64,000 bases of DNA from Promethearchaeota archaeon (GCA_048938105.1 JBHLMN010000006.1:192001-256000); one strand, 5' to 3'. Counted from the stretch's first letter, positions 1 to 18,849 are shown. Notes: a model not told the origin generated them from the sequence alone. Translations and numbers: made by a program.

Positions 1-2455
1 TATCTTAAGCAATGGGGAGGAGATCAAAACTCATCCCATTGAGATTGGTTCTGATGAATATAATAATATTATCTCCGCTGATACACTAGAAGCTAATCTT
101 TACAAATCAGCAGTAAAATTAATTAATAATCCAGAGATCCAGAATCTTATTTCAGAGAGATGGCCCAAGGTTAAAATGAATGTCAGTGGCTATAATATAA
201 AAGATATGATAACAGATAATATGATTGATTTATCAAAAGCATTTTTAGGATCGGAAGCAACATTAGGGATCGTTGTCGAGGCCAAACTTAAGTTTATTGA
301 CAAACCAAAGAATGTAACCTTAGTAGTCATGGATTTTGATAATCTTGCTAATTCGGGAAGAGCTGTAGACTTAATTGTCAATCAGATAGGAGTAGCTGCT
401 ATTGAAGTCCTTGGTAAAAGTGTTATTGATTTCGGAGTTGAAATGAATCCTTCATTAAAACAGTTTATTCCTGAGGGTGTAGATAATATCCTTTACATTG
501 AATTTGACGAACAAGACGAAAAGATCCGAGCTGAAAAAGTTGAAAAAACCAGGAAATTAATTATGGAGCAAGAAAAACTTGCTACTGATATGAGGTTTTC
601 TGATGACCCCGTTGAACAAGCAAACCTTTGGAAAGTTAGGAAAGATGCTGTACCGTTACTTCAAAAAGTTCGGGAACCTCGTCGAATCATGGCTTTTGTA
701 GAAGATCAAACAGTTCCTCTTGAGCATTTAGGTCACTATATGACGAAATTACGAGAGGAAGTATTCCCAAAACATGGAATACAAGCAGCAATATATGGTC
801 ATGCATCAAAAGGCCTCGTTCATACACGACCATTTGTTAATACGAAAGATCCAAAGGATTTAAAGATTATTAAGGAAGTTGCTGATGAGATCAATTCGTA
901 TGTCATCAGTATAGGAGGAGCTGTCTCTGGGGAACACAATGATGGCCTTGATCGAGTCAATTATGTTGTTGATATGTATGGAGAAGACCTTTACGATGTC
1001 TTTAGGAAAATGAAGGCGCAATTTGATCCAAATGGAATTCTTAATCCTGGGAAAAAGATTCCAAAAGAGCAAGACCTCTTGATAAAGAATCTACGATTTG
1101 GAGCGGACTATTCAACTATAGATATAGAAACTAATTTAGTCTGGGACAATAAATGGGGATTTAAGGATGTTATCGAATCATGTCACGGTTGTGGGAAGTG
1201 TACTGTAGAATTAATTCCCCAAAGAGATTGTCCCATCTATAGGGCTAAAAAATCAAGTACAGGAGAACTAGCTTCCCCAAGGGCTCGAGCAAACTTGTTG
1301 CGTGGTATTATCTCAGGACAATTAGATCATAAGATTCTTTACTCAAAAGAGGCCAGACAGGTATTGGAAGACTGTGCAGGTTGTATGATGTGTATTGTCG
1401 ACTGTCCATCTGGCGTGAATATACCCAAGACAATGTTTGATGCAAAAATCATGCATTATAAGAGATCAAAATGGCCTTTTATTGGTAGAATTCCGAGAGG
1501 GCATTATTTCACAGGTAATTATGAGCTAATCGCGAGATTAGGAAGTACTTTTGCACCTCTATCAAATCTAGGGCTATGGGGACCAAACAAGTACATGATG
1601 CAACTTTTTGGAGGGGTGCACCGAAAAGCGAATTTTCCGAAGTTTCGTCGTAATACATTCCAAAAATGGTTTAAAAATTATCGAAAGACGAATCCTCCTC
1701 CAAAAAATCCAGTAAAGAAAGTCGCACTTTTCCATGGATGTTTTGCTAATTATACTGAAAACACAGATATTGCTATTGCAGAGGTTCAAGTTCTTGAGAA
1801 GAATAATATTGAAGTAGTTGTTCCAGATAAACAATATTGCTGTGGAATTCCACTTCTATCCAATGGTCTTGGTCATGTTGCGGTAAAGAAAGGTGAAAAG
1901 AACGCAAAAATCTTTGCGGACTATGTAAAACAAGGATATGATGTTATAACTCAATGCAGCTCCTGTTTCGCTACTTTAAAGGATGAATTGCACGATACAC
2001 TTGTTGGTAACGATGATTCCAAGTTAGTTAAAGATAATACCTATTTCTTCTCAGACTACATTCTAAAACTCTTAGAAGAAGGCAACTTAAACACTGATTT
2101 TAATGGAAAAACAGGTAAAAAACTTCGTTTTGGCTACCATGAACCATGTCATCTTCTTAGTACTGGAAAAAAAGGAATTTCAGTAAATCTACTTAAGAAT
2201 GTAGATGCTATAGATCTAGTTCCCCTGAAGACCGAGTGTTGTGGTCAGCTAGGATCTTGGGGTTTTAAATCAAAGAATTATAAATATGGACAAATGATCG
2301 CTGAAAGAAGCTTATATCCTGAAGCAAACAGAGATGATATTGATGTTCTAGTTACCGATTGTCCAACGTGTAAACTCCAACTTCTAAACGTTGATAAAGA
2401 GGTATATCATCCCACTCAAGTTCTTCGAGACGCTTATGGTTTGGAGAAAGTTTAA
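1..2455 (+). CDS. FAD-linked oxidoreductase with C-terminal 4Fe-4S and CCG domains (GlcD-GlcF/YdiJ-like D-2-hydroxyacid dehydrogenase); 5'-truncated by the window edge
   Basis: The frame is open from base 2 (ILSNGEEIKTHPIEIG...) and aligns with the interior of the next paralog, so the track start at 176 is internal. Motifs: GSEATLG, YGHASKGLVHTRP, GEHNDG, CHGCGKC, CAGCMMCIVDCP, CCG x2. Confidence 0.85.
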   Translation, partial: ILSNGEEIKTHPIEIGSDEYNNIISADTLEANLYKSAVKLINNPEIQNLISERWPKVKMNVSGYNIKDMITDNMIDLSKAFLGSEATLGIVVEAKLKFIDKPKNVTLVVMDFDNLANSGRAVDLIVNQIGVAAIEVLGKSVIDFGVEMNPSLKQFIPEGVDNILYIEFDEQDEKIRAEKVEKTRKLIMEQEKLATDMRFSDDPVEQANLWKVRKDAVPLLQKVREPRRIMAFVEDQTVPLEHLGHYMTKLREEVFPKHGIQAAIYGHASKGLVHTRPFVNTKDPKDLKIIKEVADEINSYVISIGGAVSGEHNDGLDRVNYVVDMYGEDLYDVFRKMKAQFDPNGILNPGKKIPKEQDLLIKNLRFGADYSTIDIETNLVWDNKWGFKDVIESCHGCGKCTVELIPQRDCPIYRAKKSSTGELASPRARANLLRGIISGQLDHKILYSKEARQVLEDCAGCMMCIVDCPSGVNIPKTMFDAKIMHYKRSKWPFIGRIPRGHYFTGNYELIARLGSTFAPLSNLGLWGPNKYMMQLFGGVHRKANFPKFRRNTFQKWFKNYRKTNPPPKNPVKKVALFHGCFANYTENTDIAIAEVQVLEKNNIEVVVPDKQYCCGIPLLSNGLGHVAVKKGEKNAKIFADYVKQGYDVITQCSSCFATLKDELHDTLVGNDDSKLVKDNTYFFSDYILKLLEEGNLNTDFNGKTGKKLRFGYHEPCHLLSTGKKGISVNLLKNVDAIDLVPLKTECCGQLGSWGFKSKNYKYGQMIAERSLYPEANRDDIDVLVTDCPTCKLQLLNVDKEVYHPTQVLRDAYGLEKV

Positions 2456-2768
2456 TCTGCAAGTCTAAAAGTGTCTATAGATTTAACCCTGAAGAATGTT
2501 AAAGCAACAACAAGCAGAACTCAGTTTGTTTTAGTGAAGAACAATATATGTTCTTGAAAAGCTTTACAATTAAGAATTTAGTATATACAGAGTCTATACA
2601 GGATAATTTAGAAACATCTACAGATATAATTCAATTATTTCATAACTATTCCAGTCTAGGTCTTGCTTGGTAGGTTTAAGCGTTATAGTTTTAAGATAGT
2701 ATTAACTATTGTAAAGCTGTGGTTTTCACCGAATCAAAGATATTTTCATTTAAAAAGAAAGTGAAAGT

Positions 2769-5735
2769 ATGTCTAATATTAAGCTTGAACCTAAAATAAT
2801 TAAGAATGAACTCGAACAAAGAGTAAAAGGGGAAGTAGCGATTGACGATATAACACGCAACTTCTATAGTACTGATGCTAGTGTTTATAGGATTGTTCCT
2901 TCATGTGTTGTCCGTCCAAAAGATAAAGAAGACGTTAAAGCTGTAATAAAATACGCCCACGAAAGAGGTATCCCTATCCACCCTAGAGGAGGCGGATCTG
3001 GGTTGGGTGGGGCTTGTTTAGGTCCAGGAATTGTATTAACTATTAGAGATCATATGAACCAAATTATTGAAATAAATGAAGAAGAATCGTACGCAATTGT
3101 TCAAACAGGCGCCATTATGGGAAATTTAAATCATGAACTGGCAAAGATAGGAAAAATTGTATATATAGATAATTCTTCAGAAAAATATTCTACAATTGGA
3201 GGGAATATTGGAACAAATTCCTCAGGATCTCATGCTGTAAAATATGGATACATGGCGGATTTTGTGGAAGAGCTGACTGTGATTCTTAGTAATGGAGAGG
3301 AAATAAGAACTCGTCCTATTGAAATCGATTCGGAAGAATACAAAAGAATCACTGCTGCCGACACATTGGAAGCTAAGCTTTATAAATCGGCAGTAGAAAT
3401 GGTTAATAATCCAGAGGTACAAAATCTCATTTCAGAGAAGTGGCCCAAGGTTAAAATGAATGTCAGTGGTTACAATTTGAAAGATTTAATACAAGACAAT
3501 AAGATTAACTTGTCTTATATGTTTTTAGGTTCGGAAGGAACATTAGGAGTTGTAATAGAAGCTAAACTTAGATTCATCAACAAACCAAAAGATAAAACCC
3601 TAATCGTCATGGACTTTGACAATCTTGCTGATTCAGGAAAAGCTGTAGACTTAATTGTCAAAAAGATAGGAGCAGCTGCTATTGAAATTCTAGGGAAAAG
3701 CGTGATACAAATTGGAATCGAAATGAATCCTGCTTTAAAGAAGTTTATCCCTGAAGGTATCGATAATATTCTGTATGTAGAGTTTGATGAGCAAGACGAA
3801 AAGATTCGGTCAGAAAAAGTTGAAAGAACGAGAAAATTGATTATCGAGCAAGAAAAACTTGCCAAAGACATGAGGTACTCTGACGATCCTGCAGAACAAG
3901 CTGAACTATGGTATGCAAGACATAATGCAGTACCACTACTTCAACGAGTTCGTGAACCTCGTCGAATTATGGCATTTGTCGAGGATCAAACAGTTCCCCT
4001 TGAATATCTAGGGAATTATATGGTGCATTTAAGAGAAGATGTTTTTCCTAAATATGGAATTAGAGCAGCAATTTATGGTCACGCATCTAAAGGACTCATT
4101 CATACCAGACCATTCATAAATACAAAAGATCCAAAAGATCTAGAAATTGTAGAAAAAATCGCGGAAGATGTAAATTCATATGTTATCAAAATCGGGGGTT
4201 CAATTTCAGGTGAACACAATGAGGGAATGATGAGAATAAACTTCGTTAAAGAATTGTATGGGGAAGAGCTTTATGAGCGTTTTAGACAAATAAAATTACT
4301 ATATGATCCTAAGAATATTCTAAATCCTGATAAAAAGATTACTGATAAAGAACACCGAATAGTGAACAATCTTCGCTTTGGAGGAGACTATTCCACAATT
4401 GATATCGAACAAAATCTTTATTGGGAGCCAGAATGGGGATGGATGGATGTCGTTGAACAATGTCATGGATGTGGGAAGTGCACAGTGGATTTATACCCCC
4501 AAAGAGATTGTCCAGTTTACCGTGTGAAAAGAGATGACAGAGGAGAGCTAGCCTCGCCAAGAGCGAGAGCAAACCTGATGAGAGGTATAATATCAGGACA
4601 ATTAGATTATAACATCCTATATTCTAAAGAAGCTGGAGAAATAATAGAAGACTGTGCAGGTTGCATGATGTGCACAGTTGATTGTCCTTCAGGAGTTAAT
4701 ATTCCTAAAGCTATGTTCGACGTAAAAACAATACATTACAAGAAGTCAAAATGGCCATTCATTGGAAAAATACCAAGAAGTAATTATTTCACAGGTAATT
4801 ATGGATTAATAGCAAAATTAGGCAGTTTATTCTCTCCTTTATCCAATATTGGTTTGTGGGGCCCAAATAAATATTTCATGCAGGTTTTTGCTGGAGTTCA
4901 TCATAAAGCTAATTTCCCAAAGTTTCGCCATAATACTTTCCAAAAGTGGTTCAAAAAGTATCGTAAAATGAATCCTCCTCCAGAGAATCCAACAAAGAAG
5001 GTCGCACTTTTCCATGGTTGTTTTGCTAATTACACAGAAAACACAGATATTGCCATTGCAGAGGTTCAGGTTCTTGAGAAAAACAATATTGAGGTTGTTG
5101 TCCCTACTAAACAAGTTTGTTGTGGCATACCACTTCTTGCGAATGGTCTAGGTCATGTAGCTAGAAAGAATGGAGAAAAAAATACAGCAATTTTCGCAGA
5201 ATATGTAAAACAAGGATATGATATTGTCACTCAATGCAGTTCTTGTTATGCCACTCTGAAAGATCAACTTTATGAAACTCTTGTTCATACTGATGAAGCA
5301 AAGCTAGTAACAGATAATACATATTTTTTCTCTGAATATATTCTAAAATTACTAGAGGAAGATAACTTGCAGACAGATTTTAACGGAAAAACGATAAAAA
5401 ATCTTAGTTTTGGATATCATGAACCTTGCCATCTTATAAGCACTGAAAACAAAGGAATTTCAGTCAAACTTTTCAAAGACTTAGAAATTATCAATTTTAA
5501 ATCGTTGAATACGGAATGTTGTGGCCAAATTGGTTCTTGGGGTTTTAAATCGAAGAATTATAAGTATAGCCAAATGATTGCTGAAAGATCATTATACCCT
5601 GAAGCAAAGAGAGATGATATCGACGTTCTGATTACTGATTGTCCAACATGTAAGCTACAACTTCTAAATGTTAATAAAGAGGTTTTTCATCCCACCCAGG
5701 TTCTTCGAGACGCCTACAGCTTAGAGAAACCCTAA
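2769..5735 (+). CDS. FAD-linked oxidoreductase with 4Fe-4S and CCG domains (YdiJ/GlcDF-like D-2-hydroxyacid dehydrogenase), tandem paralog
   Basis: PRGGGSGLGG FAD-binding PCMH motif, TIGGNIGTNSSG, GSEGTLG, GHASKGLIHTRP, GEHNEG, two 4Fe-4S motifs and two CCG domains. Highly similar to the upstream gene. Confidence 0.9.
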   Translation: MSNIKLEPKIIKNELEQRVKGEVAIDDITRNFYSTDASVYRIVPSCVVRPKDKEDVKAVIKYAHERGIPIHPRGGGSGLGGACLGPGIVLTIRDHMNQIIEINEEESYAIVQTGAIMGNLNHELAKIGKIVYIDNSSEKYSTIGGNIGTNSSGSHAVKYGYMADFVEELTVILSNGEEIRTRPIEIDSEEYKRITAADTLEAKLYKSAVEMVNNPEVQNLISEKWPKVKMNVSGYNLKDLIQDNKINLSYMFLGSEGTLGVVIEAKLRFINKPKDKTLIVMDFDNLADSGKAVDLIVKKIGAAAIEILGKSVIQIGIEMNPALKKFIPEGIDNILYVEFDEQDEKIRSEKVERTRKLIIEQEKLAKDMRYSDDPAEQAELWYARHNAVPLLQRVREPRRIMAFVEDQTVPLEYLGNYMVHLREDVFPKYGIRAAIYGHASKGLIHTRPFINTKDPKDLEIVEKIAEDVNSYVIKIGGSISGEHNEGMMRINFVKELYGEELYERFRQIKLLYDPKNILNPDKKITDKEHRIVNNLRFGGDYSTIDIEQNLYWEPEWGWMDVVEQCHGCGKCTVDLYPQRDCPVYRVKRDDRGELASPRARANLMRGIISGQLDYNILYSKEAGEIIEDCAGCMMCTVDCPSGVNIPKAMFDVKTIHYKKSKWPFIGKIPRSNYFTGNYGLIAKLGSLFSPLSNIGLWGPNKYFMQVFAGVHHKANFPKFRHNTFQKWFKKYRKMNPPPENPTKKVALFHGCFANYTENTDIAIAEVQVLEKNNIEVVVPTKQVCCGIPLLANGLGHVARKNGEKNTAIFAEYVKQGYDIVTQCSSCYATLKDQLYETLVHTDEAKLVTDNTYFFSEYILKLLEEDNLQTDFNGKTIKNLSFGYHEPCHLISTENKGISVKLFKDLEIINFKSLNTECCGQIGSWGFKSKNYKYSQMIAERSLYPEAKRDDIDVLITDCPTCKLQLLNVNKEVFHPTQVLRDAYSLEKP

Positions 5736-5760
5736 TATTCATATCTAATTATGTTAAAAC

Positions 5761-5792
5761 GTTGGAGGCCTTCCCAATCCAACCTTTTTTTC
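5761..5792 (+). terminator. Hairpin plus T-tract terminator
   Basis: GTTGGA-11 nt-TCCAAC followed by C and T8, just downstream of the stop at 5735. Confidence 0.5.
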
Positions 5793-5847
5793 ATTAAAAG
5801 AGACAAATTTCTGTTTTGTTGAACATCTAAAGGATTTACTTTTTCTT

Positions 5848-7617
5848 TTATTTCAAAAAACGACCTAAGAAGTATCTATCGGGGTCAAAGGATCTCAGAA
5901 ACTGCAACCATTCCACTGAGGGGGATGTAAACTGCTTTAGAGGCTTTCTTATTTCTAATTCCCAATTAATTATTTCTCTGATTTCATCAATTATTTGGGC
6001 TTCGTCTGAAATATCTCCAATATATCCAGTCAATATAAATGTCCCTTTGTTAGTCTTCTCAAGAAGGGCCCGAGTTGTTACACATATCGAAACATTATTA
6101 CCGGGGACCGTGATATAAGGTACCTCAATAGGAAACCTTCCAGCTTTAAGAGGAAGAAGCACGATGATTTCATTAGCATTTAATCCCACATCATTAGCAC
6201 CACCAGATCCAAATAAAATGAAAGAATCAACCCTAGTAGAATTGATATTACCATATATATCAATTTGACCAGCACCAAGCACTCCAAGGCTCTTTGTTTT
6301 TCGTAATAATGGGCCTAGGGATATAATAGAATCAACAATCGCAGTTGAACTGATTAGATTATTGAATTCAAAGATGTAAGGGCTAGCAGGCTTTGGTTGA
6401 TATCCGTAAAAACCCACTTCTGCGAGAAGATTAATATTTTGACCAGTCTCATGAAGTGAATAAGTAGCTAACCATGCTGCAAGATTGGATGCTCCCTGGC
6501 CTGCTAATATCGTTGTATATCCCTTCTTCTGAGCTTGGTTTTTTATAATCTCTGTTGCTACCCAAATCATATTCTCAACAGGAGTTGCAGGGTGATCTGT
6601 TTGGATCATGGATTTCTTGGCGGTTATAGCCCATTTCCAGTAAGATTCGTCCAAACGTCCACAATTTGCGGTTAAACGCTCTAGTCCTATTTTTTGCAGG
6701 TAAGATTCGGAATTTGTTTCATAAACCCATTCTTTCATCCATGAGCGCATTTTTTCAGGTTCTTTTGCTGATTCTCTAAAACTAATCAAGTGTTCAAGAT
6801 CTATATCATAACCAGCGCCTTTTGGCCCGTAATGAGAACCAGGATGCGCACCCCACGGTGATTCAACCACAAAATCTACAATTCCACCTGGTAGTGTGAG
6901 ACATTGATAAGTATTGGCTAATTGTCTAATAATATGAGAAGTTACTATCTTTTCTGCTGTAACTATAACCTTCTTACTTGCAAAACAACCCCAAAGGTTC
7001 TCACTATATGGGGGAAAAATAACAGCGTTTCCTGATTGATCTGCAGCCCAAGCATGAAGGAAACTAATATCTGGCACTAATTCCTTCACAATAGCAACAT
7101 CTTGAACTGAATTGAAAGGATTAGGAACGGTTCTGAAAGAATTTTGATTATCAATTGCCATTGTACTTCCAATAAGTGATGTAGTTGGAATGAATTTCAG
7201 ACCAAGGGCACCAGCGTACAATCGAAGAGAGAAAACCATTAATGACCATTGCTCAATCTCGAGACTATTATCTACAGCACGTTGAAAGACGGGTGAAATC
7301 CCTGGTCTTGGATAAACATCTCCCACATAGCTTGTTACTAACTTTGATACTAATCCTTCAGCTACAAGCATCTGAATTTGACTAGCTGAACCAAGTGATA
7401 TTACTTCGAATTGGGAATCCTGACCTACCGTTTGTCTGATAATTTCCCTGACAGAGGAATAAGGTAATGCACTGATACAAGCTAAATGTAGTTTCATTTG
7501 TGGTCTCAAAGTATCCTTTATTGCACCTGATAGACTAATACGCTTATCAGAATGGGTTTCCTGAATGGTATTCAGCTTTCCTTCAAGATCATGAGAAAAA
7601 AAAGCCATCGGACTCAC
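5848..7617 (-). CDS. Family I CoA-transferase, fused alpha+beta (glutaconate CoA-transferase GctAB-like)
   Basis: Alpha half: HAWAADQSGN, PWGAHP. Beta half: LLAEVG (putative catalytic Glu), GAGQIDIYGNINST, GSGGANDV. The likely start is the ATG at 7608 after a GGTGA RBS. Confidence 0.8.
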   Translation of the reverse strand: MSPMAFFSHDLEGKLNTIQETHSDKRISLSGAIKDTLRPQMKLHLACISALPYSSVREIIRQTVGQDSQFEVISLGSASQIQMLVAEGLVSKLVTSYVGDVYPRPGISPVFQRAVDNSLEIEQWSLMVFSLRLYAGALGLKFIPTTSLIGSTMAIDNQNSFRTVPNPFNSVQDVAIVKELVPDISFLHAWAADQSGNAVIFPPYSENLWGCFASKKVIVTAEKIVTSHIIRQLANTYQCLTLPGGIVDFVVESPWGAHPGSHYGPKGAGYDIDLEHLISFRESAKEPEKMRSWMKEWVYETNSESYLQKIGLERLTANCGRLDESYWKWAITAKKSMIQTDHPATPVENMIWVATEIIKNQAQKKGYTTILAGQGASNLAAWLATYSLHETGQNINLLAEVGFYGYQPKPASPYIFEFNNLISSTAIVDSIISLGPLLRKTKSLGVLGAGQIDIYGNINSTRVDSFILFGSGGANDVGLNANEIIVLLPLKAGRFPIEVPYITVPGNNVSICVTTRALLEKTNKGTFILTGYIGDISDEAQIIDEIREIINWELEIRKPLKQFTSPSVEWLQFLRSFDPDRYFLGRFLK

Positions 7618-7741
7618 CTAGTTTGATTTCAAATGAATTCAATATTTCAGCAAAGTCTTTTTAATTTATATTATCTCGATATTTGGCCAGAATAAATAAT
7701 CGTCTTAAGTAAAGAAAAGTATATTTCTAGCTGCGTGGCGA

Positions 7742-8254
7742 ATGTTGAAGTATGAATATCTAATGGATCCAATATTATTTAGACAGCATATTAAACATAA
7801 TTATGCTGATATAGTTTGGAATGCCTACCTTCAAAAAGAAAAAATTGAACAACTACTTAATAGGGAGCTTGTTGGATCTCTAAATTCAATAGTTCAGCTT
7901 TTCTTACAATATGTACTAAAAGAATGGAGTTGTCCAAATTGCTTACAAGTCATCCTTCCATTTATGAAAAATTGTTATCGAGATCTTCCAGAATATGGAG
8001 ATATTGTCTATGTTTCCTCTTCTGTCTTGTTAAGTAACTTTCCTGTATTATCGTGTCCTCATTGTGAAACAAAGATTGTTGTAATCGCTACGAGTGAACA
8101 TAGTGATATTTTTGAATTTCGCTATCAATTTATTAAGGGGGAAATTTTCGATTTGATTGAACAACGAGCTTTAACTGATTCTGAAATAAAAGAACTTCGT
8201 TTAACAAAAAAGGATCAGCGATCGTTGATAGATAAAAAATTAAGAACATTCTGA
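7742..8254 (+). CDS. Hypothetical protein with a CPNC...CPHC zinc-ribbon-like motif
   Basis: 170-aa ORF with an ATG start and two CxxC pairs, divergent from the CoA-transferase. Confidence 0.6.
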   Translation: MLKYEYLMDPILFRQHIKHNYADIVWNAYLQKEKIEQLLNRELVGSLNSIVQLFLQYVLKEWSCPNCLQVILPFMKNCYRDLPEYGDIVYVSSSVLLSNFPVLSCPHCETKIVVIATSEHSDIFEFRYQFIKGEIFDLIEQRALTDSEIKELRLTKKDQRSLIDKKLRTF

Positions 8255-8316
8255 GTAAAAATATCCAATCAGGGGATTATAAAAAAGAGGAGGAGGTTGA
8301 TGAAAACTTTATTAAA

Positions 8317-9183: not shown

Positions 9184-9192
9184 AACACCTAC

Positions 9193-10329
9193 TTAAGCCA
9201 TAACCTCTTTGAGCTTACCAACTGCATCCATCATATCTTGGTAAGCATCAATACCCGCATTTTTGAGTATTGCAACACCTTCAGCCTCTCGTGTTCCAGT
9301 CAATCTTATTACCATAGGGGGAGCATCTGGAAATTCTTTCATTGTCAGTAATATAGCTTCTGCCACAACATCACACCTTGTTATACCACCATAAATGTTG
9401 ATTAAGACTGACTTAGGTCTCATTGTATAAATGAGCTTAAGTGCTTCATATACTCGTTCCTTACTGGCACCTCCACCAACATCCAAGAAATTCATACCTG
9501 CCAAGCCGTGTTGAGCCAAAACATCAAGTAAAGCCATTGTTAACCCTGCTCCATTTGCTAGAATTCCTATTTCACCATCTAGTTCAACAAAAGAAAAACC
9601 AACCCTTTGAGCAGTTTTTTCTAATTCAGTAAGTTTTCGTTTCCGTAATTCCACGATAAGCTCCTGACGAAACGCAGCATTATCATCCAGAGTCATTTTT
9701 CCATCTACAGCGACCAGGCCTGAAGGAGTAAGCACCAGTGGGTTGATTTCAACAAGTTGTGCTTCTTTTTTAGTTGTAATCTGCCATAGCTTCATGAAGA
9801 GATCTACAGCTGAATTAAGATTTTCACCTGAAAAACCTAATTTTTCAGCGACTCCTTTTGCAGCGACCTCACTCAATCCTTCTGTTAAAGAGATATTCTG
9901 CTTGATTATTGCCTCTGGGCGAGTGGCAGCTACTTCTTCAATGTCAATACCCCCTTCAGCACTTGCAATGAGAACGAAACGTCTTCCAGAAGAATCTAAG
10001 GCAATAGAGCAGTAATATTCATGTTTAATATCAGCAAGACCCTCTATGAGGATTGCTTCGACTCCATATTCTCCCACCATTCTGTCAAAGAATTCGTTAC
10101 ATATCGAAAGAGCTTCTTCTTTTGTTTGAGCTATTTTGATGAGACCTCGCTTCTTTCGACTACCAACTGCTATTTGGCTTTTTACTATAGCAGGGAAGTT
10201 GAATTGACTTATCTTTTCTTCAACATCTTCCCCTTTTATGATAACAAGACGATCAGCAAGGGGAATCTCATATTCACTGAAAATTTCTTTGCTTTCATAT
10301 TCGAGTAAACGAATTGTATATACCTCCAA
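9193..10329 (-). CDS. sucC: Succinyl-CoA synthetase beta subunit (probable true start is ATT at 10314)
   Basis: RLLEYESK N-terminus, EGGIDIEEVA, EINPL, NGAGLTMA, NFLDVGGGA, GGITRCD. Confidence 0.95.
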   Translation of the reverse strand: MEVYTIRLLEYESKEIFSEYEIPLADRLVIIKGEDVEEKISQFNFPAIVKSQIAVGSRKKRGLIKIAQTKEEALSICNEFFDRMVGEYGVEAILIEGLADIKHEYYCSIALDSSGRRFVLIASAEGGIDIEEVAATRPEAIIKQNISLTEGLSEVAAKGVAEKLGFSGENLNSAVDLFMKLWQITTKKEAQLVEINPLVLTPSGLVAVDGKMTLDDNAAFRQELIVELRKRKLTELEKTAQRVGFSFVELDGEIGILANGAGLTMALLDVLAQHGLAGMNFLDVGGGASKERVYEALKLIYTMRPKSVLINIYGGITRCDVVAEAILLTMKEFPDAPPMVIRLTGTREAEGVAILKNAGIDAYQDMMDAVGKLKEVMA

Positions 10330-10382
10330 AAATTACCATATAAAAGAAGGTAGTGAATTTTTGATGTATGGATTGGAAATGT

Positions 10383-10988
10383 TCAGAAAGTAATGCCTAA
10401 AAACTCACCTATTTTACCTAGATTTTCTTGAGCCTGCATAGCTACATTTTTAAAAAGACTATCACCGTTTGTATCGATACCTACGATTAATGGCCCGAAT
10501 TTATCGACTTCTAGAACCCATAAACATTCAGGAGTTCCAAGATCTAACCAATGAACCTCTTTAACCCTTTTAATCCCTTTAGCAGCGACTACTGCGGCAC
10601 CGCCTACGAAGGCGGTATATATGGCCTTATATTCCTTCATAGCTTTAGCTGTTCTATCACCCATACCACCTTTACCGATAACAACATTCACATTAAAGGT
10701 CTTAATGAATCTGTCTTCAAAAAGATCCATACGGGTTGATGTCGTGGGCCCAGCAGCAACAATTTCCCATTCATCTCCTATTTGTCTCACAACTGGGCCA
10801 CAATGATAAACAGCTAAACCTTCAAAATCAATGGGCATTTTTTCACCTTTTTTTGCCAGGTGTAATGCTCTCTCATGAGCTTCATCTCTAGCAGTGAATA
10901 TTGTTCCCGATATGTAGATAACATCGCCTATCTTAACTTTTTGTACATCTTCTTTTGAAATTGGGGTTGTAAAATGAAATTCAGCCAT
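10383..10988 (-). CDS. fumB: Class I (Fe-S) fumarate hydratase beta subunit
   Basis: TARDEAHER, YHCGP, GPTTSTRM, GKGGM. Lies between the sdh and suc genes. Confidence 0.9.
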   Translation of the reverse strand: MAEFHFTTPISKEDVQKVKIGDVIYISGTIFTARDEAHERALHLAKKGEKMPIDFEGLAVYHCGPVVRQIGDEWEIVAAGPTTSTRMDLFEDRFIKTFNVNVVIGKGGMGDRTAKAMKEYKAIYTAFVGGAAVVAAKGIKRVKEVHWLDLGTPECLWVLEVDKFGPLIVGIDTNGDSLFKNVAMQAQENLGKIGEFLGITF

Positions 10989-10990
10989 GA

Positions 10991-11896
10991 TTATTCCTCC
11001 TTGTGAGTTAGATATTCTACTCGTTTATCTGGGTAGATACGAGCGGTTGATCTTCTAGCAGCCCAGCATTGATAAGCTACAGCAGCAGGTAGGGAAGCTG
11101 GGTGTCGATGAGCATATTCAATCTTTACATCTAACGCTGTAGAGACATCTCCACCTAATCCCATTGCACCAATACCAGTCATATTAATTGCTTTCAAGAG
11201 GTCTTCTTCAAGCTTGGCTATTTCGGGATCAGGATGTCGTTCTCCGATTGGCCGCATTACTTGTTTTTTTGCTAATTTCAACGCGATATCTGCGCCACCA
11301 CCTATACCAACACCAACGACTCCAGGTGGGCAAGGTTGGCCACCTGCGTTTATAATAGTATCAATAACAAACTTTTTTATTCCATTAATTCCTTGGCCTG
11401 GTTTCAACATCCCCAAAGCGCACATATTCTCTGATCCCCCGCCTTTGGGAAATACTGTAATTTCCAGATAATCAGCTCCGGGAATAAAATCATAATTAAT
11501 GAATGGAATATGATTTCCTGTATTGTCCCCAGAATTTCCGCCTACAATAGGATTGACCGCATTTGGTCTTAAAGGAACTTCCTTGGTTGCTCGAACTGAA
11601 GCTTTCCTTAGTGTCTCTTCAATGCCTATAACTTTAGGAAAATTCTCACCAATATTAACATAATATATGTGAATTCCAGTATCTTGACACATTGGAGTAG
11701 ACGTCTCATCTGCTATGGTAAAGTTATCCACAATTGTTTTCAACGCAGCTTTACTTGTTGATTTCGTTTCTTGTTCATACATAGTTTTCAATGCGTCGGA
11801 AACATCTTTTGGTAGTTGAGTTGAGGCAAATTTGTGCAATTTAACAACTACATCTTCAATTATCGTGTTATCGAACGTTTCTGTCATAGTTATCAC
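10991..11896 (-). CDS. fumA: Class I (Fe-S) fumarate hydratase alpha subunit
   Basis: PMCQDTG, KGGGSEN, PCPP, GIGG, QCWAARR. TCA-cluster context favours fumarase over tartrate dehydratase. Confidence 0.9.
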
Positions 11897-12074
11897 TAAT
11901 CACAAACTATTGTTATATGAAAAACTGATAAAATATTTCTTTTGGTGTAAATAAAAATTCTCTCACTTATAACTTGTAAATACAATGTAGCCTTTCGAGT
12001 TGTTCATTCTTGCCTTGTCAAAATTCACATTGCTATGAAATATGAGAAAGTAGTGAAAAAAAGGAAGTCACGTT

Positions 12075-12815
12075 TTAACGTGACCAAAATTTAAGTGCTT
12101 GCTTCGCTGATTGGCGTTTTAATGCTTGGATAGCTTCTGTAGGATTAAGTTCTTTTGGGCATGCCTCAACACAATTAAATGCAGTATGACAGCGAAAGAC
12201 TCCGTCTTCAGCAGTTACACGTTTTACACGGTTCTTAGTATTTTCATCTCTAGTATCCTTAGTGAAACGGAATGCTTTTAGAAGTGCTCCAGGGCCCAAG
12301 TAATTCTTGTCTGTCCATACTGATACACATGAACTGTGACACGCTCCACATAGAATACATCTAGTTGCTTCTTCGATAATTTTAAAGTCTTCAGGGCTTT
12401 GAATGATTTCATCTTCAGGATCTTTAGAGTGATCCCTTATTAGGAAAGGATTAATAGCAAGTAATTTCTCATAGAAGGGATCCATATCAACTACCAAGTC
12501 TTTTATCACTGGAAAGAATGGTAATGGTTCCAACTTGATTTCTTTTTTGTTTAATTGTAAAACGAGAGTTTCACAAGCTAATTGGTACTTATTATTAACA
12601 AGCATTGCGCAAGATCCACATACGCCTGCACGACAATTGTATCTCATCGAAACGGAGCCATCGTACTTAGCAATGATCTCTTGTACTGCAATTAATACTG
12701 TTGTCCCTTTGTCACAATCTACTTCAAAGCTATCCCAGTATGGTTCATAATCTGTTGCTGGATTGAATCGCTTTATCTTGAAGGTTATTTTTTGAGTTTC
12801 TTTTGTTTCACTCAT
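12075..12815 (-). CDS. sdhB: Succinate dehydrogenase/fumarate reductase iron-sulfur subunit
   Basis: CRAGVCGSC (2Fe-2S), CILCGACHSSC (4Fe-4S), CHTAFNCVEACP (3Fe-4S). Confidence 0.95.
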   Translation of the reverse strand: MSETKETQKITFKIKRFNPATDYEPYWDSFEVDCDKGTTVLIAVQEIIAKYDGSVSMRYNCRAGVCGSCAMLVNNKYQLACETLVLQLNKKEIKLEPLPFFPVIKDLVVDMDPFYEKLLAINPFLIRDHSKDPEDEIIQSPEDFKIIEEATRCILCGACHSSCVSVWTDKNYLGPGALLKAFRFTKDTRDENTKNRVKRVTAEDGVFRCHTAFNCVEACPKELNPTEAIQALKRQSAKQALKFWSR

Positions 12816-12825
12816 TCATTTCACC

Positions 12826-14553
12826 TCAATACGTTCGTTCCTTTGGCTCCCATTTTGTTATAACGACATCTAAGTAGCTCAATTTTGCCTCTCCATCTGC
12901 ATAATTGGCCAATGTATGCTTTAAGAAGTTCTCATCATCTCTCTTGGGATAATCGAGACGCCAATGACATCCTCGACATTCTGTTCGTTTCAATGCACCT
13001 AAACACATAACTTCAGCGACATCAAGCATACCTTCAATAGCAAGTACCCACTCTAATTCTCTATTATATTGTCTGACCTTAGACTTTAAATATGCACCTT
13101 CTTTGAAACGCTTTTTAAGTTCCCTAATCTTATTAAGAGCTTCTGTAAGGGGGCCTTCTTCACGATATACAAAAACCTTGGTCATCATTGTAGCTCTCAT
13201 TTCTTCCATAATTGAGAAGGGATCATCCTTACCTTCACCATTGAACCATCGATCAAGTTTTGCTTCTTGTTTTTGTAATTCTGAAAAAAGGACATTTACA
13301 TCAGATGAGGATGTTACCCCCTTTGCATATTTAGCTGCCTCTAATCCGGCAATTTTTCCCATAACAGCACATTCCAGAAGAGAATTCCCACCTAAACGAT
13401 TAGCACCGTGGACTGATACACAGGAACATTCACCACAAGCAAAAAAGCCCTCTAATTCTTTGCTAGAGCAGTTTTCATCTACATGAATACCCCCCATCAT
13501 ATAGTGAAAACCAGGTTGAACTGGAATAGGATCTTTGATCATATCTTGGTTAGTAAATATTAATGCTAGCTCACGTATCTGAGGAAGACGCTCAAGAATT
13601 TGTTCTGCTGGCAAATGAGTCAAATCAAGGTGGACATAACCATTTTCTTTTGTACCAAATCCTCGTCCTTCAAGAACTTCTTGATAAATTGACCGAGAGA
13701 CAATATCTCTTGGAGCAAGTTCCATTTTCTCTGGCGCGTATTTTTCCATGAAGCGTTCACCCTTATTATTTCGTAAGTAACCACCTTCACCTCGTGCTGC
13801 CTCAGAAATTAGGACATTATTCCCATATAATGTTGTTGGGTGAAATTGAATGAATTCCATATCCTTGAGACCGACACCTGCCCAATAGGCTATTGCCATA
13901 CCAAAAGCGTTACAGCTAAGAGCATTGGATGTTGCTCCATAAACCTGTCCAGCACCACCAGTGGCGAAAATAACTGCATCACATTCCCACATCTCAAGAT
14001 CGCCTGTTCTAAAGTTATAAACAATGAGTCCTTGAACTTTTTTGTCTTTAACTGCTAATCGGGTAACAAGGCGATCTTCATAAACAGAGACACCGAGTTT
14101 GACAGATCTTTCCCAAGCTACATGAAGTACAGAGTGGCCAGTTCGGTCTGCAGCAAAACATGTTCTTGGGTATCCAGCTCCTCCGAAAGGTCTCTGTCCT
14201 ATTCTTCCATCTTCAAACCTTGAAAAAGGACAACCCCAATGTTCTAGTTCATAAACTGTTTCTTTAGCCAAACCTATCATTTTAATGACAGCTGGTTGAT
14301 CAGCCAGATAATCTGAACCTTTAACTGTATCGAAAGCATGTCGTTCAACAGAATCATCCTCTGATTCTGGATTATTGCATAATGGTGCATTAATTCCTCC
14401 TTGAGCTGCAACAGAGTGGCTTCTCACTGGTTGACATATTGAAATAACGGCTACATCTGCTCCAGTTTCTCTGGCAGCTACTGCTGCACGCATTCCAGCC
14501 AGACCTGACCCCACTACGAGTATTGAATGTCTTTGTATCTTCATTTTTATCAC
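12826..14553 (-). CDS. sdhA: Succinate dehydrogenase/fumarate reductase flavoprotein subunit
   Basis: [15 protein letters not shown] (covalent-FAD His), [31 protein letters not shown]. Confidence 0.95.
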
Positions 14554-15080
14554 TCACCTGCTAAAATCACAATTTCTGGAACAATTAGAATGAATACTAA
14601 AGCTACAAGCCAAGTAATGATCCCTAGGATCAGTAAAATCCAGAAAATTGTTTTTTGACTACGAATTCCTATTCCCAAGTCAAAAAGGACAACCCGAATG
14701 CCATTAAATCCATGATATACAAGAATCGCAATTAAACCTATATCTATCATATATCCGATACTAATAATGTTTTGGATGTTGATAACAATGTTCCCAAATT
14801 CTAGGGGAGCAAGGTCGGGGAAAATTGGTGAATTAACCCAGTGTATTAGGCTATTGTAGAATTGGCCAGCATTTAAGCCCCAAATTGAGTCTACAGCGAG
14901 TGTAAAGATCATTCCGAAATGGAATATTACATAAAATATTAGAAGAAGACCTGTAATTCGTTGAAGTAACCACGCCCACATTCCAATTCCGCGGGCAAAA
15001 GGATTGAACCATTGAAGAAAGTTTGTTGCTTTACTACTCGTATTTATTTGTGAATCATGTAGTTCCTCGTTTTTTGCCAT
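14550..15080 (-). CDS. sdhC: Succinate dehydrogenase cytochrome b membrane subunit
   Basis: WLLQRITG, two conserved His ([12 protein letters not shown]), three TM helices, overlaps the sdhA start. Confidence 0.85.
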
Positions 15081-15086
15081 TAAAAA

Positions 15087-15530
15087 TCACCTTATTCCAA
15101 TACTTGCGACAGTAAGATTCAACCAAAGAGTGTAACTGATAGCCAAAATTCCTATGATTATTAACAAGAATGCGATTAATTTTCGAAGTGTTTGATTTGT
15201 TGTGAGGTCTAATATTACTGTTCGAAATCCATTCAACATGTGAAAGACTAATAGTGTAACCATGCAGAAAGATATTACAAGATACAAAGGTATTCCTAAG
15301 TATGTATATTGCATCTTCCATTGAACTGCTTCAAAAGAAGCAACACCAAATGCCCGTATGTCCTTTGGTAGGAGAGCTGTTAGATAATGATTTGCCAGCA
15401 TGTGAAATAAAATAAAGAAGAATAATAAAAACCCAGAGACCCGCTGGAAAACCCACCAAATTGCACTCCTTGCCTGATGTTTGGGCACAAAACGCTTAAG
15501 TTTACTTTCAGAAGAAATTTCTATTCCCAT
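15087..15530 (-). CDS. sdhD: Succinate dehydrogenase hydrophobic membrane anchor
   Basis: WVFQRVSG, LFHM, FHMLNGFRTVILD, three TM helices. Confidence 0.8.
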   Translation of the reverse strand: MGIEISSESKLKRFVPKHQARSAIWWVFQRVSGFLLFFFILFHMLANHYLTALLPKDIRAFGVASFEAVQWKMQYTYLGIPLYLVISFCMVTLLVFHMLNGFRTVILDLTTNQTLRKLIAFLLIIIGILAISYTLWLNLTVASIGIR

Positions 15531-15869
15531 ATTTTGATCACATCATGTAACTATATTGCGATAGACTTTCAATTTTTACGAATATCGAAAGTTAAAGGCT
15601 CTGTGGAATATATTGGCAACCAGCTAATAGTATCTTATCTTTTTTTTCATTGGAAGGAAAAAAAAAGGCTATTTTTTAAACATAAAATAAATTCAGTTAA
15701 CAATTGTGGACTGATTTTAAAATTAAATTTTCAATTCAAAGCAATTCTGAGTACACAATTGTAAAAAGAAATTACTTGATGATATAGAAGCAAAAAGTGT
15801 CTGGAATATTAGTAGGTGAAAAATTAGGGATTGCCGTTTATCTTCAAGAGAAAATAGATTAAAGATAAA

Positions 15870-15897
15870 AAATGAGATGTGATTAAGAATCTCATTT
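15870..15897 (-). terminator. Hairpin downstream of larA
   Basis: AAATGAGAT-10 nt-ATCTCATTT inverted repeat just after the larA stop, followed by T-rich sequence on the minus strand. Confidence 0.45.
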
Positions 15898-15899
15898 CT

Positions 15900-17258
15900 T
15901 TATCGATTCTTCACATCAATGTAATTCCCAGCATCTGGTAAAACATAAATAAGGGGATCTCGATTCCTTTCTTCTCTGTACTTCTGAATCCATGAACGAA
16001 GACTCTCTTGAATCGTACCTGTTCGTGGGACATATTTCATTTGAAAAACATTTTCAATCTCGTCTTTATCCATTTCAGTGATTATATGACAAGTACAGCG
16101 CTTTAAAATTCGTAGTAAATCGACTACCTTTTGATTACCAATTTTAAAAGTTTCAATACTGCACTTTGTTTCAATAACATGATTCATTGCTTCACCAAGA
16201 TCCATTCCCTTAATTTCTTGCATTGTGTCATAGTAATTCTGAGATCCATGACCAAAAGGGCAGTGAGCAAGTAGTAAAACATTTCCACCTTGTTTAACTG
16301 CATTCCAGCCAGCGTGAAAACCTTTTCCACCTTGGTATAAATTAATACTCAATGCTCCTGTAGATACAATTACTAGATCAGCAGGATCCTCAACTTCAAC
16401 GATTCGAAGGGGTTTTAACGTTTCTAGTACTAATTCATGTAAAGAGTTGATATCTCCTCCGTTAAGAATAACAATATCATCACCCTCCATAACAGCATCG
16501 ATACAGAATACAGGGACTAGTTTCTTGGTAGATTTAGCCATCTCAATCATGTCTTGAATGACTGGATTACCTGTTGTATTCCCTAGACGACATTCTGGTT
16601 TAAATCCATGAACCTTATCAAACATTTGTGGATGATTTCTGGCAATGGTTTCTTTACCAGCACATCCTGGGAAGAAGGATTTAACTGTTCCTGCAACTCC
16701 AGCGAAATAGTGATATTCGCTATCTGAGACAGCAATAACTAATCCAGATTCCAATACATCAATATCAACTTCAATCGGTGTACCTAATGACGAGGTTCCA
16801 AGATTTTTGCAATTTTCATCTTGTTTATGAATTATAACATGATCTTTCCATGCATTGTAAATCTCAGAACCAAGGATTTTATTTTCAAGTAAATCATCAC
16901 TTGGAGGACTATGGGATCCACTTGCGATCATAAGACGAATATCATCTTTATTTACTCCAAAATCAAACAGTTTTTCTAAAAGTATTGGAAGTAAAATCTT
17001 CGTATGCTTATTTGGTCTGGTTGCATCATCCACAAGAATCATTATTCTCGGTCTTGCCCGATTTTTCACCATTTCCTCTAAGGGAGGTGAATCAACAGGA
17101 TTTTTGATGATTTCGTCAAAACGAGCTTGGAGATCTGTGAAAGTACGTTTTGCTTTCTCGGGCTCCAGAACTCGTACATTCAAATCTGCTGGGATGAAAT
17201 CGGAAATCATTTCATCCCCGTATGCTAACGATATATCCTTGTAAGACATAAGTATCAT
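15900..17258 (-). CDS. larA: Nickel-pincer-nucleotide-dependent lactate racemase family protein (LarA homolog)
   Basis: DDATRP, ASGSH, HYFAGVAGTVKSFFPG (His and Lys), NHPQM, NLYQGGKG. Substrate uncertain. Confidence 0.85.
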   Translation of the reverse strand: MILMSYKDISLAYGDEMISDFIPADLNVRVLEPEKAKRTFTDLQARFDEIIKNPVDSPPLEEMVKNRARPRIMILVDDATRPNKHTKILLPILLEKLFDFGVNKDDIRLMIASGSHSPPSDDLLENKILGSEIYNAWKDHVIIHKQDENCKNLGTSSLGTPIEVDIDVLESGLVIAVSDSEYHYFAGVAGTVKSFFPGCAGKETIARNHPQMFDKVHGFKPECRLGNTTGNPVIQDMIEMAKSTKKLVPVFCIDAVMEGDDIVILNGGDINSLHELVLETLKPLRIVEVEDPADLVIVSTGALSINLYQGGKGFHAGWNAVKQGGNVLLLAHCPFGHGSQNYYDTMQEIKGMDLGEAMNHVIETKCSIETFKIGNQKVVDLLRILKRCTCHIITEMDKDEIENVFQMKYVPRTGTIQESLRSWIQKYREERNRDPLIYVLPDAGNYIDVKNR

Positions 17259-18836: not shown

Positions 18837-18849
18837 AGGAGGATAATAA

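Follow-up and report, generated by a model that had tools for sequence, protein, structure and literature searches.

The window, by which we mean the whole stretch of 64,000 nucleotides, comes from a Hodarchaeales (Asgard) archaeon and carries an island of TCA cycle and ATP-citrate-lyase genes. Genes were called from an ORF listing together with Pfam and NCBIfam profiles, and the island was found to contain sucCD, fumAB, sdhCDAB, aclBA, icd, an aconitase and 2-oxoacid:ferredoxin oxidoreductases. At its left end lie two tandem paralogs of a fused FAD/Fe-S dehydrogenase, 76% identical and both read towards the cluster on the plus strand: copy 1 at 2-2455 (Pfam FAD-oxidase_C, Fer4_8 and two CCG domains) and copy 2 at 2769-5735 (988 aa; FAD_binding_4, FAD-oxidase_C, Fer4_8 and two CCG domains). 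The true start of copy 1 lies about 494 bases left of the window, which gives a full length of 989 aa. An earlier note on this DNA had the two dehydrogenases flanking the cluster; instead, both stand on the same side of it. Next to them, a family-I CoA-transferase with two fused domains, belonging to the glutaconate CoA-transferase group (5848-7617, minus strand; Pfam CoA_trans) gives a weak PDB match to glutaconate CoA-transferase 1poi (7e-20, 74 bits) and keeps its position beside sucCD in G009 and L025. A conserved protein of 170 aa (7742-8254, plus strand) has no Pfam or NCBIfam match, and copies 76-85% identical to it occupy the equivalent site in L022, L024 and L025. On the minus strand follow sucD (8317-9183) and sucC (9193-10329) for succinyl-CoA synthetase (Pfam ATP-grasp_2, Ligase_CoA and CoA_binding over the pair), the beta (10383-10988) and alpha (10991-11896) subunits of a two-subunit class I fumarate hydratase (Fumerase and Fumerase_C), and succinate dehydrogenase/fumarate reductase over 12075-15530 in the order sdhC-sdhD-sdhA-sdhB. 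The latter consists of sdhB (12075-12815; Fer2_3 with Fer4), sdhA (12826-14553; FAD_binding_2 with Succ_DH_flav_C) and two Sdh_cyt subunits (14550-15080 and 15087-15530).

As the earlier note had said, a larA homolog (15900-17258, minus strand, 452 aa) sits between sdh and acl, divergent from aclB. The ATP-citrate lyase genes aclB (17553-18836) and aclA (18850-20682) are on the plus strand (Citrate_synth_N, Citrate_bind, Ligase_CoA and Citrate_synt over the pair), as is an Iso_dh protein (20737-21936) of the isocitrate/isopropylmalate dehydrogenase family. It is presumed to be isocitrate dehydrogenase, its best NCBIfam models being isocitrate dehydrogenases, all below cut-off. An aconitase-family hydratase of 639 aa (22065-23984, minus strand; Aconitase and Aconitase_C) follows, and the subunits of 2-oxoacid:ferredoxin oxidoreductases lie farther right. 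Malate/oxaloacetate was thought to be the only cycle step lacking a gene here. There is indeed no malate dehydrogenase gene in the window, but citrate synthase is missing from it as well, a step that is covered only if ATP-citrate lyase is counted.

The LarA homolog is intact and exceeds the Pfam cut-offs for Lar_N (143 bits) and LarA_C (48.8 bits). Its set of catalytic and cofactor-binding residues is complete: in L. plantarum LarA numbering, R75, K184 and H200 for the cofactor and the catalytic H108 and H174 are found in it and in 37 of 38 aligned relatives, the lone exception (L029) having Gln at H108. The accessory genes sought by a whole-genome profile search are all there and above the NCBIfam cut-offs (given in brackets), larB and larC on contig C4 and larE on C15, with 238.7 bits for LarB (175), 133.6 for LarC1 (90), 88.8 for LarC2 (50) and 257.5 for LarE (150). 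The signature of the protein reads D R H H Y F K H / Y Q G G K / G N Q K, and its alpha-14 G-N-Q-K aligns with the G-H-K of Mar2. According to the published rule, malate racemases (LarAH4/5/6/62) carry H-K or Q-K at the alpha-14 positions that match W358/T359 of LarA1 (PMC11770544; PMC7583248). This Q-K is found in the window protein and is kept in all copies of lineage A and nearly all of lineage B. Lactate racemases would need F, F, W and E/Q at 175, 176, 358 and 359, where the window LarA has Y, F, Q and K. Judged by these published signature residues (PMC11770544, PMC7583248), the protein looks like a malate racemase rather than a lactate racemase. A 2-hydroxyglutarate racemase signature (Y, F, H/Q and T, with V/I at 294) agrees at Y, F and Q, but K stands in place of T and Tyr294 is kept.

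Mar2/LarAH6 of Thermoanaerobacterium thermosaccharolyticum (6d6z, the best PDB match at 9e-48) and the putative archaeal LarAH group 4 share with the window LarA the Lar_N/LarA_C fold family, the catalytic His pair, the Arg/Lys/His that hold the cofactor and the alpha-14 Lys, thought to bind the second carboxylate; group 4 also has its Y-F loop. Mar2, however, is only about 33% identical, and both Mar2 and group 4 have a Gln (Gln297, in Y-Q-x-Q-K) before the catalytic Lys298, where the window LarA and most of its subfamily have Gly (Y-Q-G-G-K). The best NCBIfam model is the LarAH6 malate racemase, and the scores against the malate-racemase equivalogs NF052593 and NF052595 lie below cut-off (253.9 against 500 and 233.4 against 462 bits). 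The protein falls in a small separate subfamily of about 17 of 2245 clusters. The 2-hydroxyglutarate racemases (LarAH7 of Deferribacter and LarAH32 of Geobacter; groups 7a and 11) resemble it in the Y-F loop, the alpha-14 Gln and the dicarboxylate class but differ in having V/I at Tyr294, Q/H at 297 and Thr at its Lys. Of the suggestion that this LarA is a malate racemase, the Q-K signature and larBCE speak in favour, while Gln297 and the LarAH6 cut-off do not.

Directly 3′ of the larA stop, a 12-bp hairpin followed by a U-run (15858-15900, minus strand) folds with -9.9 kcal/mol (z = -3.68 against shuffles), and from this terminator-like element larA would appear to be separately transcribed as a unit of its own. 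The acl-larA-sdh order is preserved in at least 5 other species, where the syntenic LarA orthologs share only 80-95% identity with the window LarA. The equivalent acl-adjacent spot in G010 is taken by a LarA from another lineage, which is 41% identical but has the same signature. In other congeners (L027, L029-L033) larA is parted from sdh or acl by other genes. Outside the genus the context is not cycle-related: the neighbours are purD/purQ/purL in the sister family f4, whose LarA ortholog is 52% identical with the same signature, PRPP synthetase and polB in f3, and GNAT and NTP-transferase genes in Anaerolineales. It may be noted that LarA orthologs co-occur with canonical Ldh_1 in at least 7 congeners (G004, G005, G011-G014 and G017), and that the fused FAD/Fe-S dehydrogenase is absent from all five f4 genomes.

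The two flavoproteins have the domain layout of NAD-independent D-2-hydroxyacid dehydrogenases, which supports the earlier note on this point, and are predicted to be of this type. The order FAD_binding_4, FAD-oxidase_C, two [4Fe-4S] and two CCG, the size of about 1000 aa and the independence from NAD are those of YdiJ (E. coli, Pantoea) and the fused GlcD-GlpC type (PMC9504171). Copy 1 is the version that relatives retain, the only copy in G009 being 89% identical to it, and copy 2 is a tandem duplicate found only in the window genome and G003. The NCBIfam matches of copy 1 are GlpC (266 bits, cut-off 278) and YdiJ (237.9 bits, cut-off 1350); for copy 2 the top model is YdiJ (NF049975), with 381.8 bits against 1350 and a match that spans the N-terminal half only. 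Among PDB structures the nearest to copy 2 are LctD 7qh2 (1e-42), glycolate oxidase 9qgz and mouse D-LDH 8jdc, while D-2-hydroxyglutarate dehydrogenase 6lpn reaches only 1e-23, so that the FAD domain is closer to the D-lactate dehydrogenase/glycolate oxidase structures. The pair lies about 10 kb from larA on the opposite strand, and a fused dehydrogenase stands beside the cluster, within 10-12 kb of larA, in G000, G009 and G011. In G015 the two genes are 169 kb apart, and none of the 5 distant homologs examined has a LarA neighbour.

The genome (5.85 Mb, 99% complete, 7.25% contamination) was searched with profiles for a malate dehydrogenase. Ldh_1_N, Ldh_1_C and Mqo gave zero matches in the whole genome, but contig C49, outside the window, encodes a 365-aa protein of the Ldh_2 family (PF02615, 395.5 bits over profile positions 1-332 of 333). 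The absence of mdh assumed in the earlier note therefore holds for the canonical family only, since the genome carries this candidate. A canonical mdh elsewhere was to have counted against a replacement of Mdh; none turned up in the genome search, and the non-canonical Ldh_2 protein most likely fills the gap. A distance of 2.3 kb separates its gene from that of a citrate/2-methylcitrate synthase, which passes TIGR01800 and is the sole true citrate synthase of the genome; prpB and prpD are neighbours too. The protein shares the full-length Ldh_2 domain with Methanothermus fervidus MDH, M. jannaschii MJ1425/ComC, 1v9n, 3i0p (E 1e-95 for both of the latter) and sulfolactate dehydrogenase 2x06 (6e-59), and is below every NCBIfam equivalog cut-off. 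Characterised archaeal members of the family convert oxaloacetate to (S)-malate (PMC5695019). The C49 protein groups with the clade of 1v9n and 3i0p, which has no published activity and is named by homology alone (bioRxiv 10.1101/495713). On dividing 50 genomes of the class (at least 85% complete) by dehydrogenase type, 10 have Ldh_1 only, 29 an Ldh_2 ortholog only, 5 both and 6 neither; with the genus left out, these numbers become 7, 24, 0 and 5. Ldh_2 thus alternates with canonical Ldh_1, the pattern expected of a functional replacement. Counting against this are three genomes that lack both types, G015 (70% complete), G010 (87%) and G007 (71%), the first of which does carry LarA, fumarase and the fused dehydrogenase.

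The reading to which we give about an even chance combines a type-2 malate dehydrogenase for the malate/oxaloacetate step with a separate malate-type LarA and NAD-independent D-2-hydroxyacid dehydrogenases, the activities and their physiological direction being predicted from gene content, residues, phyletic patterns and synteny. The NAD(P)H-dependent Ldh_2 enzyme on C49 would most likely stand in for canonical Ldh_1, a case of non-orthologous displacement. LarA is probably linked to the cycle as a racemase of malate type. As a nickel-pincer-nucleotide-dependent enzyme acting on a dicarboxylic 2-hydroxyacid, with D/L-malate the most probable substrate, it would connect a pool of the D-isomer, possibly arising by uptake or side reactions, to L-malate, the form used by fumarase and the dehydrogenase. 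The tandem flavoproteins may supply 2-oxoacids to the island from D-lactate, glycolate, D-2-hydroxyglutarate or D-malate as candidate substrates, with electrons probably passing to the respiratory chain. Against this reading stand the Gly at Q297, unlike tested malate racemases, the score at half the LarAH6 cut-off, the Y-F loop shared with 2-hydroxyglutarate racemases and the non-cycle neighbourhoods outside the genus.

An alternative is another cycle-related hydroxy-dicarboxylate as the substrate, most plausibly 2-hydroxyglutarate, which LarA would convert from the L- to the D-form for oxidation by the YdiJ-like dehydrogenases to 2-oxoglutarate, as repair or feeding. Glutaconate CoA-transferase uses (R)-2-hydroxyglutarate, and the adjacent CoA-transferase, closest to that enzyme, could share the theme, though the likeness is weak. 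Dehydrogenases of the Ldh_2 type are known to form the L-isomer as a by-product, ComC converting 2-oxoglutarate to (S)-2-hydroxyglutarate (PMC5695019). Loop and alpha-14 Gln agree, the Gly at Gln297 enlarges the pocket, and YdiJ, a D-2-hydroxyglutarate dehydrogenase, tops the models for copy 2. However, the Lys is of the malate type, Tyr294 is kept, the YdiJ match is far below its cut-off and partial, and such racemases are reported from bacteria only (PMC11770544); we regard this substrate as unlikely.

That LarA and the dehydrogenase replace Mdh, as the earlier note proposed, is unlikely. L-malate would be turned by LarA into D-malate and this oxidised by the fused FAD/Fe-S protein to oxaloacetate with a quinone-level acceptor, as the main Mqo-like step, Ldh_2 being otherwise employed. 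Mqo, which is missing here and has no homology to either enzyme, would be the functional analogue, an NAD-independent quinone-level enzyme doing in one what the two would do together. Thermodynamically, malate is more readily oxidised with a quinone as acceptor than with NAD. Further in favour are the lack of Ldh_1 and Mqo in a nearly complete genome, the malate-racemase-like signature with intact larBCE, the proximity of dehydrogenase and larA in three genomes, and the gene content of G015, a genome, however, of just 70% completeness. Also, some GlcD-type D-2-hydroxyglutarate dehydrogenases oxidise D-malate (PMC9504171), although E. coli YdiJ does not, and COG0247 and COG0277 genes recur beside the putative and proven malate-racemase groups 4 and 6 (PMC7583248). 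Yet a conventional dehydrogenase step is favoured by the way Ldh_2 alternates with Ldh_1 and by the citrate synthase close to the Ldh_2 gene, seven congeners have a canonical mdh alongside LarA, and f4 keeps LarA without the dehydrogenase. The opposite strands, the distances of 10 and 169 kb, the larA hairpin, the FAD domain nearer to D-lactate dehydrogenase/glycolate oxidase and the distant homologs lacking a LarA neighbour argue likewise, and in the literature surveyed we found no demonstration of the two-step route in any organism. It is quite improbable that larA is a stand-alone gene with a cycle-unrelated substrate that ended up between two operons of the cycle in this genus, for although its own hairpin, the intervening genes in some congeners and the context lost outside the genus would fit, the position is held across species with diverged orthologs and by the other lineage in G010, and the signature points to a C4/C5 dicarboxylate as substrate, in keeping with the chemistry of the cycle.

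Under the preferred reading, with a type-2 malate dehydrogenase and a separate malate-type LarA, the racemase bypass is not needed, because the missing Mdh is most likely the type-2 enzyme beside citrate synthase. If the fused dehydrogenases take D-malate, LarA and dehydrogenase would form a parallel route in this archaeon and not a replacement.

The gene list of the earlier note for the window proved correct on an ORF listing combined with Pfam and NCBIfam scans. At the left edge there are two fused FAD/Fe-S dehydrogenases (2-2455, + strand, truncated by the window edge, and 2769-5735, +), which had been described as flanking the cluster but are in fact tandem copies, 76% identical, both on one side of it. 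These are followed by a fused alpha/beta family-I CoA-transferase (5848-7617, - strand), a 170-aa protein that matches no Pfam or NCBIfam family (7742-8254, +), sucD/sucC (8317-10329, -), the two subunits of a class I fumarase (10383-11896, -), sdhB and sdhA with two Sdh_cyt subunits (12075-15530, -) and the LarA homolog (15900-17258, -). Divergent from larA are aclB and aclA (17553-20682) and an Iso_dh gene (20737-21936), on which the aconitase gene (22065-23984) converges; 2-oxoacid:ferredoxin oxidoreductase genes are present further right within the window. The source assembly (G000; the window is part of contig C41) has 5.85 Mb, 99% completeness and 7.25% contamination. A second, partial aclA and Iso_dh pair at the end of another contig (C19:580-2442) is either a duplicate of the acl-icd block of the window or, at that level of contamination, a strain or contaminant copy. 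The nearest solved relative of the CoA-transferase is glutaconate CoA-transferase (1poi, 7e-20), and its location beside sucCD is kept in relatives; the 170-aa protein is 76-85% identical in three relatives, at the same spot between the CoA-transferase and sucD. On C41, shortly before the left edge of the window (L056:9246-11165), a 639-aa protein is encoded that joins an acetyl-CoA hydrolase/transferase to a GNAT acetyltransferase domain; its gene diverges from that of the first flavoprotein and adjoins a UbiA prenyltransferase.

Searches with Ldh_1_N and Ldh_1_C, for the canonical malate dehydrogenase family, and with Mqo (malate:quinone oxidoreductase) gave zero matches across the entire source genome; control genomes were matched by the same searches. 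The type 2 family PF02615 (Ldh_2) gave two matches, the strong one being a 365-aa protein on contig C49 (395 bits). This protein matches PDB 1v9n (Pyrococcus horikoshii) and 3i0p (Entamoeba histolytica) at E 1e-95, against 6e-59 for the M. jannaschii sulfolactate dehydrogenase, and scores below all NCBIfam equivalog cut-offs. Both of these nearest structures were deposited as malate dehydrogenase, a name given from homology only (bioRxiv 10.1101/495713). Characterised archaeal Ldh_2 members, namely M. fervidus MDH, MJ1425 and the M. marburgensis enzyme, convert oxaloacetate to (S)-malate (PMC5695019). A stretch of 2.3 kb separates the C49 gene, whose immediate neighbours are kept in five relatives, from prpB, a citrate/2-methylcitrate synthase and prpD. 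The synthase is above the TIGR01800 cut-off and is the single true citrate synthase of the genome, as the other three Citrate_synt matches are ACL-type lyase domains; thus the two cycle steps absent from the window adjoin each other elsewhere. Of 50 genomes of the class Heimdallarchaeia with a completeness of 85% or more, Ldh_1 alone is present in 10, an Ldh_2 ortholog (54-84% identical) alone in 29, both in 5 and neither in 6, and for those outside the genus the corresponding counts are 7, 24, 0 and 5. The two families never occur together outside the genus, which is the pattern expected from non-orthologous displacement. Neither is seen in the relatives G015, G010 and G007, which are 70%, 87% and 71% complete. 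Because the C49 gene sits beside citrate synthase and its family has a phyletic distribution complementary to canonical mdh, the apparent gap at the malate step would be best explained by this type-2 enzyme, and we put the chance of this at about even. On one contig of genome G005 (C8:22-3672) a canonical Ldh_1 gene and an Ldh_2 ortholog are about 2 kb apart. The Ldh_2 ortholog alignments in G002 (C19:74611-75702) and G013 (C179:14856-15947), both of which also have Ldh_1, each contain one in-frame TAA, perhaps a stop upstream of the true start or a sign of gene decay.

The window LarA keeps all catalytic and cofactor-binding residues (D72, R75, H108, H174, K184, H200, Q295 and K298 in L. plantarum LarA numbering), and LarB, LarC and LarE of the genome are all over their curated cut-offs. 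The larBCE pathway is shared with a further LarA homolog, on C39 (80436-80918, L004), which at 555 bits scores over the threshold of NF052594, the NCBIfam model for putative nickel-dependent hexonate epimerases; its listed ORF begins within the domain match and the start codon is uncertain. PurE was not found in the 99%-complete genome, where the sole AIRC-domain (PurE/LarB) match is the LarB beside LarC (C4:7612-7998); other purine genes do exist, such as an AIRS-family gene just left of the window.

Specificity positions were taken from PMC7583248 and its supplement and from section 6 of PMC11770544. At positions 175/176, at 294-298 and in alpha-14 the window LarA reads Y-F, Y-Q-G-G-K and G-N-Q-K. 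The corresponding residues are F-F, Y-Q-V-K and W-E in lactate racemases, Y-K, Y-Q-Q-K and G-H-K in Mar2, Y-F, Y-Q-Q-K and G-H-K in the archaeal group 4 of putative malate racemases, and Y-F, V/I-Q-Q/H-K and N-Q-T in 2-hydroxyglutarate racemases (PMC7583248, PMC11770544). The window LarA follows the 2024 malate-racemase rule (H/Q then K; PMC11770544) and departs from both the lactate-racemase and the 2-hydroxyglutarate-racemase rules, yet unlike all tested malate racemases it has Gly at position 297. Its top PDB match is Mar2 (9e-48, against 4e-33 for lactate racemase) and its top NCBIfam models are two malate-racemase families, each reaching about half of the cut-off. In an exhaustive search over 1.84 billion representatives, the Y-F / Y-Q-x-G-K / G-x-Q-[KN] pattern was found in about 17 of 2245 LarA-like clusters (E 1e-10 or better); next nearest to the G-x-Q-[KN] clusters are G-G-H-K (malate-racemase-like), then N-G-x-T (2-hydroxyglutarate-like). 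A quick IQ-TREE tree, in which the G010 copy is on a long branch, divides the Asgard copies into three lineages: A, the window type, with family f4 and Anaerolineales; B, with families f2 and f3 and one copy of G010; and C, a genus-only paralog with the motif G-I-Q-N, which has neither conserved neighbours nor cycle genes nearby. The window LarA is most aptly called a malate-racemase-like representative of a small subfamily. Malate is its most likely substrate, at a probability of about one half, 2-hydroxyglutarate ranks after it, and other C4-C6 hydroxy-dicarboxylates are possible; that the enzyme instead works on 2-hydroxyglutarate or another substrate is unlikely in our estimate. In one ortholog (L029:9998-11362, Hodarchaeota YT2_065; 79% identity) Gln replaces the catalytic His108, which could reflect loss of activity, a variant working with a single histidine or an error in sequencing.

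The flavoproteins contain FAD_binding_4, FAD-oxidase_C, two [4Fe-4S] sites and two CCG domains, and on the GlpC model (cut-off 278) their C-terminal half reaches 264-266 bits. This architecture and the GlpC-like half fit NAD-independent dehydrogenases that would pass electrons to a quinone-level acceptor. Relatives keep the left copy only, which shares 89% identity with the one copy of G009. The best matches of the FAD domain are LctD, glycolate oxidase and mouse D-lactate dehydrogenase (1e-42 to 1e-40); human D-2-hydroxyglutarate dehydrogenase is far more distant (1e-23), and the pairwise alignment with it is restricted to the FAD-binding part. E. coli YdiJ, of the same architecture, is strictly specific for D-2-hydroxyglutarate, and D-malate is also accepted by other GlcD-type enzymes (PMC9504171). 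With more than 1200 matches at E 1e-50 or better, the fused form occurs widely, and it was found in 14 of 17 genomes of the genus; no LarA lies beside the five distant homologs whose neighbourhoods were read. In the f2 genome G019 a 39% identical copy is 4 kb from LarA, with unrelated genes in between. That COG0247 and COG0277 genes occur close to several LarA groups, malate-racemase groups 4 and 6 among them, had been pointed out by Desguin et al. (PMC7583248), so the pairing of LarA with a flavoprotein is a known recurrent pattern. In a Nitrososphaerota MAG (L074:6745-18019) a 33% identical fused dehydrogenase directly follows an Iso_dh gene, with cytochrome b, Rieske and sdhA/C/B genes nearby, giving a second archaeal phylum in which this enzyme has a respiratory/cycle neighbourhood.

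The earlier proposal that LarA and a D-2-hydroxyacid dehydrogenase replace Mdh is unsupported, since the Ldh_2 enzyme, placed beside citrate synthase and complementary to mdh, is the simpler explanation and LarA is kept with or without canonical mdh. LarA orthologs (78-90% identical) coexist with canonical Ldh_1 in G004, G005, G011-G014 and G017, so LarA does not track mdh loss in the genus, and all five f4 genomes examined carry LarA (51-52% identical, same signature) with no fused dehydrogenase found. One observation favours the replacement, namely that in G015 LarA, the fused dehydrogenase and fumarase occur together while neither Ldh_1 nor Ldh_2 is seen, though the low completeness of this genome (70%) weakens the case. 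On balance we consider such a bypass improbable. The same holds for its wider form, in which LarA and a fused D-malate dehydrogenase would give Hodarchaeales a quinone-linked, NAD-independent conversion of L-malate to oxaloacetate, beside the type-2 enzyme or in some species replacing it. The Iso_dh gene beside aclA was also considered as a decarboxylating D-malate dehydrogenase and set aside; its best models are isocitrate dehydrogenases, with nothing distinctive.

The closest LarA orthologs (75-95% identical) are from Candidatus Hodarchaeota or Heimdallarchaeota, and the next are from Anaerolineales (43-49%). At least five other species (L022-L025, L028) preserve the order icd, aclA, aclB / larA / sdhCDAB, fumAB, sucCD, and locus L021 shows the sdh side. 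In G010 a lineage-B LarA, just 41% identical, occupies the same place beside aconitase, aclBA and icd, which argues against pure chance. In our estimate a meaningless adjacency of larA to cycle genes is very unlikely. Directly 3' of the larA stop codon there is a 12-bp hairpin with a U-run (-9.9 kcal/mol, z -3.7), then an AT-rich spacer of 370 bases before sdhC; for these reasons larA looks like its own transcription unit, with a divergent control region common with aclB. Outside the genus the neighbours are PRPP synthetase and polB in f3, and purine genes in f4, where the ortholog lies between purD and purQ-purL (L047, L048, L069). In Anaerolineales they are, by Pfam annotation, GNAT and a MobA-like NTP-transferase, then an amidohydrolase and a purine-nucleoside-phosphorylase-family gene, and nucleotide-related genes thus recur beside LarA in all three groups. 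An MFS transporter beside larA in L029, L033, L035 and L051 was rejected as a conserved uptake partner, the four proteins being mutually unrelated.

What remains is probably a malate-type racemase inside the cycle island of one Hodarchaeales genus, beside respiratory-type D-2-hydroxyacid dehydrogenases and two CoA-transferases. It represents a small uncharacterised LarA subfamily (Y-F / Y-Q-x-G-K / G-x-Q-K) kept beside ACL and SDH genes in that genus, and if it racemises malate, the origin of D-malate in these cells becomes a question. Should the flavoproteins accept D-malate, the bypass would be a new way of malate oxidation, a two-enzyme analogue of Mqo that would place an irreversible oxidative malate step in the cycle of close archaeal relatives of eukaryotes. 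As Hodarchaeales belong to the nearest of these relatives so far known, their central carbon metabolism is under close reading; the alternation of Ldh_2 with Ldh_1 across Heimdallarchaeia offers a testable annotation correction for metabolic reconstructions.
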